From Candidatus Babeliales bacterium (GTDB lineage Bacteria > Babelota > Babeliae > Babelales > CAIQNR01): a stretch of DNA of 64,000 bases. The notes under the pieces are model-generated. The model ran no database searches. It worked only from the letters and a program-made list of their open reading frames with translations, and was not told where the DNA came from. Positions 31,569 to 32,225 of the stretch are shown piece after piece. A program made the position numbers and the translations under genes. Location: assembly GCA_031972475.1 (NCBI GenBank), contig DALYEP010000001.1, positions 670,567 to 734,566 on the forward strand, written 5' to 3'. Within the stretch, counting starts at the first letter, position 1. The number at the start of each line of letters is the position of its first letter.

Positions 31569-32225
31569 GTGAGATTTTCTTTAAAGAAAGATAAAAGTGT
31601 GAAAAAAGTAGATAGAAAAATATACCCAAATGAAGTAGAAAAAGAACTCAATATTATATATTTGCCATCACTTAAAATTGTAGCACAAGAACTTGCTGAT
31701 TATGATATAAAAAAAGATTTGGAATATCGAGCTAACCCTCCTTTAAATAATAAATTAGAAGCTTTGTATGGCTCTTTGATTGATCAATCATACATTGCTC
31801 CCATGTATGTAAAGTGGGTTAATAAAACAGTGCAATATGGTGTTTTTGCAGATGCAGATCTTAAGCGCGGAGATATGGTTTGCGAATATACAGGAATATT
31901 GTGTAGAGATGATAATGATGATGAAGAAAATGGTTATATTTGGGATTATCCAACCGTTGCATATGAGCATGTTGAAGGTAGAAAGCGAAGAAAAAAAGTT
32001 AAATATTGCATTGATGCTTTAAAGGCTGGAAATTTTGCACGTTTTATTAATCATACTATTAGAAAATATCAAAATGTTGGAGTGCAAATGGTGCCTCGAA
32101 ATAATTTGTGGCATGTTGTTTATATCGCTAAAAAAGATATAAAAAAAGGACAGCAGTTATTAACTTATTATGGAACTCAATATTGGCGAGATAGGCAAAT
32201 AGTTCCTGAGCCGATTGAGCCTTAA
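31569..32225 (+). CDS. SET-domain protein-lysine methyltransferase (eukaryote-like)
   Basis: GTG start. SET motifs are YGVFADADLKRGDMVCEYTGIL, GNFARFINHTIRKYQN (compare NHSC.PN) and IKKGQQLLTYYG (compare GEELT.DY). An internal basic patch GRKRRKKVK is present. Confidence 0.75.
   Translation: MRFSLKKDKSVKKVDRKIYPNEVEKELNIIYLPSLKIVAQELADYDIKKDLEYRANPPLNNKLEALYGSLIDQSYIAPMYVKWVNKTVQYGVFADADLKRGDMVCEYTGILCRDDNDDEENGYIWDYPTVAYEHVEGRKRRKKVKYCIDALKAGNFARFINHTIRKYQNVGVQMVPRNNLWHVVYIAKKDIKKGQQLLTYYGTQYWRDRQIVPEPIEP

Follow-up and report, generated by a model that had tools for sequence, protein, structure and literature searches.

Bacterial SET-domain proteins, including some with internal basic clusters, are already well known, and we compare them here with a SET protein encoded in a 64-kb stretch of DNA (hereafter the window) from Candidatus Babeliales, i.e., from the Dependentiae/TM6, widespread protist parasites about which almost nothing is known. 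In the literature that we searched, no paper linked SET enzymes to Dependentiae/TM6, and the protein, which carries a distinctive insertion, is the first one found for Dependentiae there. A first-pass annotation had described it as a eukaryote-like lysine methyltransferase with a basic patch resembling a nuclear localisation signal (NLS), acting either as a secreted effector on host histones or on an endogenous target such as nucleoid proteins. We confirmed the observation, with a correction of the gene start, and found the interpretation to be partly supported; a job inside the bacterium appeared at least as likely as an attack on host histones.

Described SET proteins and the Babeliales protein

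Among the described systems, the chlamydial proteins NUE (CT737, Chlamydia trachomatis) and cpnSET (C. pneumoniae) share several features with the window protein. They are likewise small and single-domain, with about 205-220 amino acids (aa), have no Sec signal, carry a basic cluster inside the I-SET region, and belong to obligate intracellular bacteria with a condensed-nucleoid extracellular stage. cpnSET methylates the histone-like protein Hc1 (PMC10117894), its documented endogenous substrate, and was localised mainly in chlamydial cells (PMC3980110). A SET protein of Rhabdochlamydiaceae is homologous to the window protein over its full length, including the N-terminal helices and the C-terminal YW tail, and their end-to-end alignment gave 30% identity over 195 aa (E 1e-23). 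The distribution of charge is different: in the chlamydial proteins the basic cluster comes right after EYTG (RKRKRRE in P0349; RRR121 in NUE, PMC3980110) and is accompanied by a basic C-terminal tail, whereas the window protein has an acidic loop, DDNDDEEN, after EYTG, a non-basic tail, RDRQIVPEPIEP, and its positive charge on a hairpin insertion. In a pairwise alignment, the acidic loop occupied the site of RKRKRRE in Rhabdochlamydiaceae P0349. The bipartite NLS proposed for NUE consists of RRR121 and KHRKKR206 (PMC3980110), and basic clusters at these two positions (RRR ~121, KHRKKR ~206) were not present in the window protein. A basic cluster inside the I-SET region thus has a precedent, at a different site. 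Other differences are that BLAST ranking and a neighbour-joining tree both placed the window protein nearer to homologues with signal peptides than to proteins of the chlamydial type, and that NUE uses a type III system, which is not mentioned for Chromulinavorax destructans (PMC6561590) and was not recognised among the open reading frames (ORFs) of the window.

Our favoured functional model is Go1-SET of Methanosarcina mazei, a small prokaryotic SET enzyme that, according to the title of Manzur and Zhou, 2005 (as cited in PMC10117894), is active towards the endogenous DNA-associated protein MC1-alpha. It comes, however, from a free-living archaeon and is likened to the window protein by function only, not by sequence. 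We know of no polybasic hairpin in Go1-SET.

Among solved structures, the best match for the family profile was SET8/KMT5A, the human H4K20 monomethyltransferase. It aligned over the nSET helix, the catalytic motifs and the I-SET hairpin, which is long in both, and it likewise has one SET domain and lacks Cys-rich modules before and after it (pre-SET, post-SET). The two proteins differ by their low sequence identity, by the switch residue (Tyr in SET8, Thr here) and by the hairpin, which is 3 residues longer and polybasic in the window protein; SET8 docks via an N-terminal arginine anchor instead (PMC7893823). Legionella RomA/LegAS4, which are Dot/Icm effectors of a protist-associated bacterium, share the SET core (NF043024 E 3.3e-11; PDB 5czy E 1.2e-3). 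Orthology with them was rejected, since the window protein scored 42.6 bits against the NF043024 equivalog cut-off of 550, with a match at positions 14-141 of 439, has no ankyrin repeats and no N-terminal NLS, and is under half their length.

A giant-virus origin was also rejected, as viral matches were distant. The best BFVD match was a protist-associated lysine methyltransferase of Bodo saltans virus (191 aa; E 1.4e-13 over 202 aligned columns) with 23% identity to the window protein, and the only confirmed relative in a two-pattern scan of IMG/VR was 30% identical over the SET core, with no sign of recent exchange.

The SET gene and its predicted product

The features of the gene are given below; residue numbers follow the 218-aa numbering of the maximal ORF (start 31569), and pLDDT is the predicted local distance difference test score of the AlphaFold2 (AF2) model.

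31599..32225, + strand: SET-domain methyltransferase, most likely coding sequence, GTG start, 208 aa, based on the alignment with L001 and L002
31620..31832, + strand: N-terminal helices, residues 18-88, which correspond to the nSET helix region
31836..32174, + strand: SET domain PF00856, residues 90-202, Pfam profile match
31869..31901, + strand: GDMVCEYTGIL motif, residues 101-111, with E106, Y107 and G109 invariant
31908..31931, + strand: acidic loop DDNDDEEN, residues 114-121, pLDDT about 82
31938..32015, + strand: extended I-SET beta-hairpin, strand 124-133, turn 134-141, strand 142-149, AF2 pLDDT 91-95
31977..32003, + strand: basic patch GRKRRKKVK (residues 137-145), which forms the core of a ~8-residue insertion specific to the clade
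32031..32057, + strand: NFARFINHT motif, residues 155-163, with R158, N161 and H162 invariant; S-adenosylmethionine (SAM)-binding NH motif
32151..32186, + strand: QQLLTYYGTQYW, with the catalytic Tyr201, Thr199 at the Phe/Tyr-switch position and the family-wide Y205-W206

The maximal ORF (31569..32225, +) opens with a GTG and encodes 218 aa. A start at 31569 was rejected by comparison with two orthologues: that of L001 (88% identical) has an in-frame TAA within the ten-codon extension, and that of L002 (78% identical) has an ATG start at the position of the window GTG 31599. The coding sequence therefore most likely starts at 31599, which fits the 204-213 aa of the relatives.

All three SET motifs reported in the first pass were present in the ORF, including QQLLTYYG at residues 195-202 (nt 32151-32174), and the suggested SET profile search gave a match to PF00856 far above the cut-off (66.9 bits vs 22.4; E 2.4e-18; residues 90-202). 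PF00856 was matched by 49/49 aligned family members. G91, E106, Y107, G109, R158, N161, H162, Y201, Y205 and W206 were invariant among the 55 clade members, and the first eight of these residues were nearly invariant in 151 outgroups, with Y201 present in every sequence of both sets (55/55 and 151/151). The alignment showed no loss of the SAM-binding residues, which were invariant throughout the clade. The region QQLLTYYGTQYW aligned with ELLYDYG of SET8. At the Phe/Tyr-switch position, Thr199 was found in 55/55 clade members and V, Y, F or I in others; we conjecture that this threonine leaves a roomy lysine channel and that multiple methylation might be possible. Judging from these motifs, the protein is predicted to be a catalytically competent SET-domain lysine methyltransferase, with intact cofactor-binding and catalytic motifs.

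The AF2 model (pLDDT 92, predicted template modelling score 0.86) contains four N-terminal helices (H20-27, H40-44, H51-55, H57-72), the SET beta-core and a long hairpin. Foldseek related it to G9a, NSD1, SETD2 and ATXR5 (probability 1.0, E ~1e-10). When the family profile was compared with solved structures, the best match was SET8/KMT5A (E 1.5e-18), from the nSET helix through the catalytic tyrosine; this alignment begins in the N-terminal helical region, which is conserved throughout the wider family. The closest solved structures were histone methyltransferases (SET8, G9a, EZH2, MLL), and the solved eukaryotic SET domains, which were the best PDB matches, reached only 18-28% identity. The protein is thus eukaryote-like at the level of the fold but not by sequence, its relatives being small bacterial SET proteins.

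A divergent clade of a small bacterial SET family

A homologue search found 60 proteins, 54 of them at 49-90% identity and almost all of 196-245 aa, with one fragment of 142 aa. In a search of 1.84 billion 50%-identity representatives, the clade formed one cluster (322 bits) and the next match scored 213 bits; the wider family comprised 395 clusters at E<1e-30 and 2,905 at E<1e-10. Among the 150 matches listed, most had 200-330 aa and matched nearly the whole profile, including the N-terminal helices. The three organism-labelled members of the wider family were from Rhabdochlamydiaceae, Chlamydiota and Verrucomicrobia. The window protein thus belongs to a divergent clade within a family of small bacterial SET proteins, of which chlamydial proteins are also members. 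The first-pass annotation had left room for a recent eukaryote-derived gene, which this placement does not bear out: the eukaryotic structures are distant, as given above, the full-length relatives are short, and the three labelled ones are bacterial.

Some members of the wider family match the SET profile several times, with 3-8 tandem matches per polypeptide in P0076 (4152 aa), P0077 (521 aa) and P0082 (799 aa).

A conserved basic hairpin specific to the clade

The basic patch GRKRRKKVK lies exactly where it had been reported, at 31977-32003, and its assignment to the variable SET-I region held, since both the AF2 model and the SET8 alignment placed it in the I-SET hairpin. It spans the turn (134-141) and the second strand (142-149) of this hairpin, all with pLDDT 91-95. 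In the profile alignment from which the difference of 3 residues was obtained, the hairpin corresponded to that of SET8, 'LYAQDPSTGCYMYY---FQYLSKTYCVDA'. The strand adjoining the patch is homologous to the I-SET hairpin in SET8 and G9a.

The patch was the only 9-mer with at least 7 K/R among the 18,733 aa of the window ORFs, where 0.14 would be expected. The run of basic residues does not simply follow from an AT-rich, lysine-rich proteome; being unique in the window ORFs and conserved across the clade, it is more than a chance feature. The segment 129-146 had a mean length of 17.7 residues in the clade (n=55) vs 9.6 in the outgroups (n=151), and a net charge of +5.3 (range +2 to +8) vs +0.35 (maximum +4). 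Positions 134-142 were filled in the clade and gapped in at least 118/151 outgroups, and the commonest residues at 140-143 (R, R, K, K) were each found in 47-52 of the 55 clade members. From these contrasts in length and charge and from the conservation of the residues, the patch is a clade-specific insertion of ~8 residues, at the hairpin tip, that is under constraint. Across the clade, the hairpin carries 4-6 lysines. The core of a classical monopartite NLS follows the consensus K-K/R-X-K/R, which K139-R140-R141-K142 fits, so that the resemblance to an NLS noted in the first pass is real.

Export signals in the clade and its relatives

Signal peptides were called by a hydropathy heuristic and inspection by eye, not by SignalP. 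None of the 55 SET proteins of the clade, the window protein included, had an N-terminal hydrophobic segment, in agreement with the first-pass reading that a Sec signal peptide is missing. Among the 40 nearest outgroups (31-45% identity), by contrast, nearly every protein started with a signal peptide or membrane anchor, and their mature N-termini aligned with the N-terminus of the clade. In the neighbour-joining tree, which was built without bootstrap support, the clade nested within a group of 39 proteins of which 82% were signal-peptide-like. The contrast between the clade and its relatives suggests two derived traits of the clade, the loss of the Sec signal and the gain of the basic hairpin.

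Signal peptides were also present in 6/6 effector candidates of the lineage, namely an ankyrin protein (in the window), four leucine-rich repeat (LRR) proteins (L003, L005) and a RING protein (L012). Among window ORFs of at least 150 aa, no secretion-system genes, including those of type III, were recognised by eye and with Pfam on a subset.

Synteny and selection

Locally, the gene order is atpD, short atpC, herA-like ATPase, SET, a 196-aa ORF and an mscK-like gene, all on the + strand. The sole conserved neighbour of the SET gene is the herA-like ATPase, located upstream on the same strand.

29915..31525, + strand: herA-like ATPase (HAS-barrel and DUF87; Pfam and NCBIfam), in an ORF that opens at 29900; the real start is probably M6 (29915), from L001 and L002

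The order herA-SET or atpD-atpC-herA-SET was found in six lineages (the window, L001 and L002; L003/4; L005/6; L007/8; L012), whose AtpD proteins are 79-93% identical, and herA-SET recurred even where the remaining neighbours differed. The two genes are directly adjacent in the window, L001, L003/4 and L007/8, while one small opposite-strand ORF separates them in L005/6 and two such ORFs in L012. In L002, they are split by two genes, encoding a PD-(D/E)XK transposase (PF12784, E 6e-55; 4272-5177) and a secreted protein (5188-5982). In a more distant Babeliales genome (AtpD 74%), atpD-atpC-herA was present and SET was absent within 7 kb. The ratio of nonsynonymous to synonymous substitution rates (dN/dS) was 0.09-0.10 for SET, 0.06-0.09 for atpD and 0.03-0.05 for herA. 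The SET gene is thus under strong purifying selection and is a syntenic, housekeeping-like core gene of one sub-lineage of Candidatus Babeliales.

No terminator-like site was found between herA and SET, and no promoter or terminator signals above background were found around the SET gene. A herA-SET defence module found no support: PADLOC gave no match for SET or the downstream ORF and only generic partial HerA matches for herA, which is conserved (71-98%) like a housekeeping gene. Against the NCBIfam HerA models, for which the cut-offs are at least 800 bits, the herA-like ATPase scored 91-97. Its surroundings in the window showed no nurA-like gene. This ATPase is 97.6% identical to its L001 counterpart and 71-75% identical to those of distant clade members, and it is more conserved than AtpD.

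A conserved downstream partner of SET was also rejected, since the downstream genes of L003 and L007 encode unrelated secreted proteins and the 196-aa ORF is common to L001 alone. This ORF (32269-32859, +), which lies directly 3' of SET, had no Pfam, NCBIfam or PADLOC match; it is 76% identical in L001, the closest relative, and RecO-like by eye only. In L012, the gene directly downstream of SET (11860-12981) encodes a C3HC4 RING-finger protein that starts with a clear Sec signal peptide and is likely a host-directed E3-ligase mimic. Signal-peptide LRR proteins cluster around SET in L003 and L005.

Possible roles of the SET protein

We tentatively favour, at somewhat less than an even chance, a cytoplasmic enzyme that would dock via its basic hairpin on DNA or another polyanion and methylate an endogenous nucleoid-type protein. 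It would reside in the bacterial cytoplasm, because the visible effector candidates of the lineage have Sec signals and the SET protein has none. In the peptide complexes of G9a and SET8, the I-SET hairpin is one wall of the substrate groove. If it flanks this groove here too, the basic hairpin could act as an arm by which the enzyme docks on a polyanion, most likely nucleoid DNA and possibly RNA. Once docked, the enzyme would be in place to methylate lysines of an endogenous protein associated with nucleic acids, which would parallel the action of cpnSET on Hc1 and, going by the title cited above, of Go1-SET on MC1-alpha. Such methylation might be linked to the condensed nucleoid of free Babeliales particles, a nucleoid of this kind being described for the free particle of C. 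destructans (PMC6561590). The endogenous target proposed as one of two options in the first pass is in this respect the one that we prefer.

Several points weigh against this role. The absence of export signals was assessed by a hydropathy heuristic and by eye, and the tree of the family has no bootstrap support. The 64-kb window contained no histone-like or Hc1-like gene, and the adjacency of herA may only be inherited gene order, given the two genes inserted in L002. A type I, III, IV or VI secretion system or another non-Sec route may be encoded elsewhere on the 790,653-bp contig that carries the SET and AtpD sequences of the window. The closest homologues are apparently exported enzymes and would act only where SAM exists, i.e., in a host; if so, the ancestral role of the family may be host-directed, and the clade could have switched its route and not its target. 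KRRK is an optimal core for importin-alpha. BaSET and NUE are secreted without Sec signals (PMC3980110), and basic anchors of SET enzymes dock on the nucleosome acidic patch, as do Arg188/Arg192 of SET8 (PMC7893823).

Some of these points speak for a secreted nucleomodulin, the main alternative, which we consider less likely. The protein would leave the bacterium by a non-Sec exit, reach the host nucleus with KKRRKK as NLS and/or chromatin anchor, and methylate histones like NUE, RomA/LegAS4, BtSET and BaSET. Besides the secretion of NUE and BaSET, the presence of KRRK in the conserved patch and a possible docking of the basic anchor on the nucleosome acidic patch, this role would fit the fold and the closest solved structures, which are histone methyltransferases, as well as the export signals of the wider-family relatives, which imply host-side action. 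In NUE, an NLS element (RRR121) has been proposed within the SET domain itself (PMC3980110). The cultured Babeliales, C. destructans and two amoeba-infecting isolates, are obligate intracellular protist parasites, and at a late stage of infection by C. destructans the nucleus of the host undergoes degradation (PMC6561590). Yet a signal peptide was found in 0/55 clade members, in contrast to the 6/6 ankyrin, LRR and RING candidates and to nearly all nearest homologues. No secretion-system genes were recognised among the window ORFs, and Sec is the export route proposed for C. destructans, in which signal peptides were reported for 44% of coding sequences and 78% of ankyrin proteins (PMC6561590). 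The patch is predicted to lie in a hairpin modelled with pLDDT >90, not in a disordered linker. The conserved synteny and a dN/dS of ~0.1 are unlike those of typical effectors, which are fast-evolving and patchy, and the protein is not a LegAS4 equivalog. A 24-kDa protein would generally need no NLS to enter a nucleus. The secreted histone-methylating effector of the first pass is thus weakened by the signal-less clade among Sec-bearing relatives, the ordered hairpin and the core-gene behaviour, and we do not favour it. More generally, a bacterial SET protein should not be called a nucleomodulin just because it contains an NLS-like string.

A doubtful but more specific variant of the endogenous role would be a domesticated effector: a Sec-exported member of the family would have lost its signal peptide and gained a polybasic DNA-binding hairpin, and would now methylate the bacterium's own chromatin, possibly together with the HerA-type ATPase, thereby controlling how the nucleoid condenses as the parasite passes between its dormant infectious particle and its replicating form. 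If this were true, it would represent a bacterial 'histone-code-like' switch convergent with the Hc1 biology of Chlamydia.

It is improbable that the lysine-rich hairpin is mainly an automethylated or pseudo-substrate element, working within one molecule or between molecules, that tunes activity instead of targeting the enzyme. Its 4-6 lysines, its place in the I-SET element that presumably borders the substrate groove, and the acidic loop DDNDDEEN, a possible pairing partner 16 residues upstream of it, would all be compatible with such an element, but R140 and R141 show the same degree of conservation as the lysines, which fits electrostatic docking better than a methyl-acceptor. NUE automethylates, with a suggested boost of its activity (PMC10117894; PMC3980110).

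Targeting of the hairpin to anionic membranes (bacterial inner or host) or to ribosomal or other RNA, with membrane- or ribosome-associated substrates, is similarly improbable: polybasic clusters commonly bind acidic phospholipids or RNA and no nucleoid-protein candidate was found nearby in the window, but the cluster has no hydrophobic residues or lipidation site and the prokaryotic SET precedents in the literature consulted act on chromatin proteins.

Whether it is the favoured cytoplasmic enzyme or a secreted one, this conserved, signal-less SET protein offers a testable entry to nucleoid lysine methylation in a developmental parasite or to a non-Sec effector route.

Origin and other features of the window

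The window has ~31% G+C. All four close AtpD homologues with an organism label (82, 74, 74 and 73% identity) were from 'Candidatus Babeliales bacterium', i.e., Dependentiae/TM6. L001 (CAZMYL010000002.1), whose genes are 88-99% identical to those of the window, is labelled 'uncultured Pseudomonadota bacterium'. A Pseudomonadota origin was not supported, since AtpD was not closest to proteobacterial structures and its labelled close relatives are all Babeliales; going by these comparisons, the label of L001 is probably a taxonomic error. The one-piece transfer-messenger RNA (tmRNA) of the window argues only against Alphaproteobacteria.

The window contains the housekeeping genes ruvA, a tandem ddl-ddl fusion, priA, polA, thyX, secF, rho, tsaD and smpB, together with the one-piece tmRNA, atpD, typA, alaS and an O-antigen-type ABC exporter, and it is also rich in signal-peptide ORFans. 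The ddl-ddl fusion (3454-5655, -) encodes a 733-aa protein that contains a tandem pair of complete D-Ala-D-Ala ligase units, each with its Dala_Dala_lig_N and C domains, and that is conserved at 57% identity in L005 (17457-19676). Rho (17435-19165, +) has a Q/P/S-rich N-terminal extension of ~190 residues, with the RNA-binding domain starting from residue 191. The short atpC (29665-29907, +), which overlaps the atpD stop, encodes an 80-aa ATP synthase epsilon subunit with the beta-sandwich domain only (Pfam 23 bits, below cut-off); similarly short ORFs (74-84 aa) follow atpD in L003, L005, L011 and L012.

Four small ORFs stand in a row on the + strand (14289-14651, 14689-14958, 14985-15227 and the 3' part of 15097-15759), with N-terminal signal-like segments; the first and last close with a hydrophobic anchor followed by QQSN, and the four may represent surface-protein paralogues in a local array. 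The ankyrin-like protein (40079-43261, -; 1060 aa) has a signal peptide, a weak Ank_2 match (Pfam E 6.6e-4, below the gathering score) and, by eye, about nine degenerate repeats of ~100 residues ('...PIFDIK...FNEIKYFKLNG...'), to which no DNA tandem repeat found by Tandem Repeats Finder (TRF) corresponded. The tmRNA gene (22430-22807, +) encodes the tag ANNVFANQAVAAA, and ~80 nt of it are overlapped by the 3' end of an opposite-strand ORF (22725-23648, -) for a 307-aa signal-peptide protein, whose tail is probably a spurious read-through into the tmRNA.

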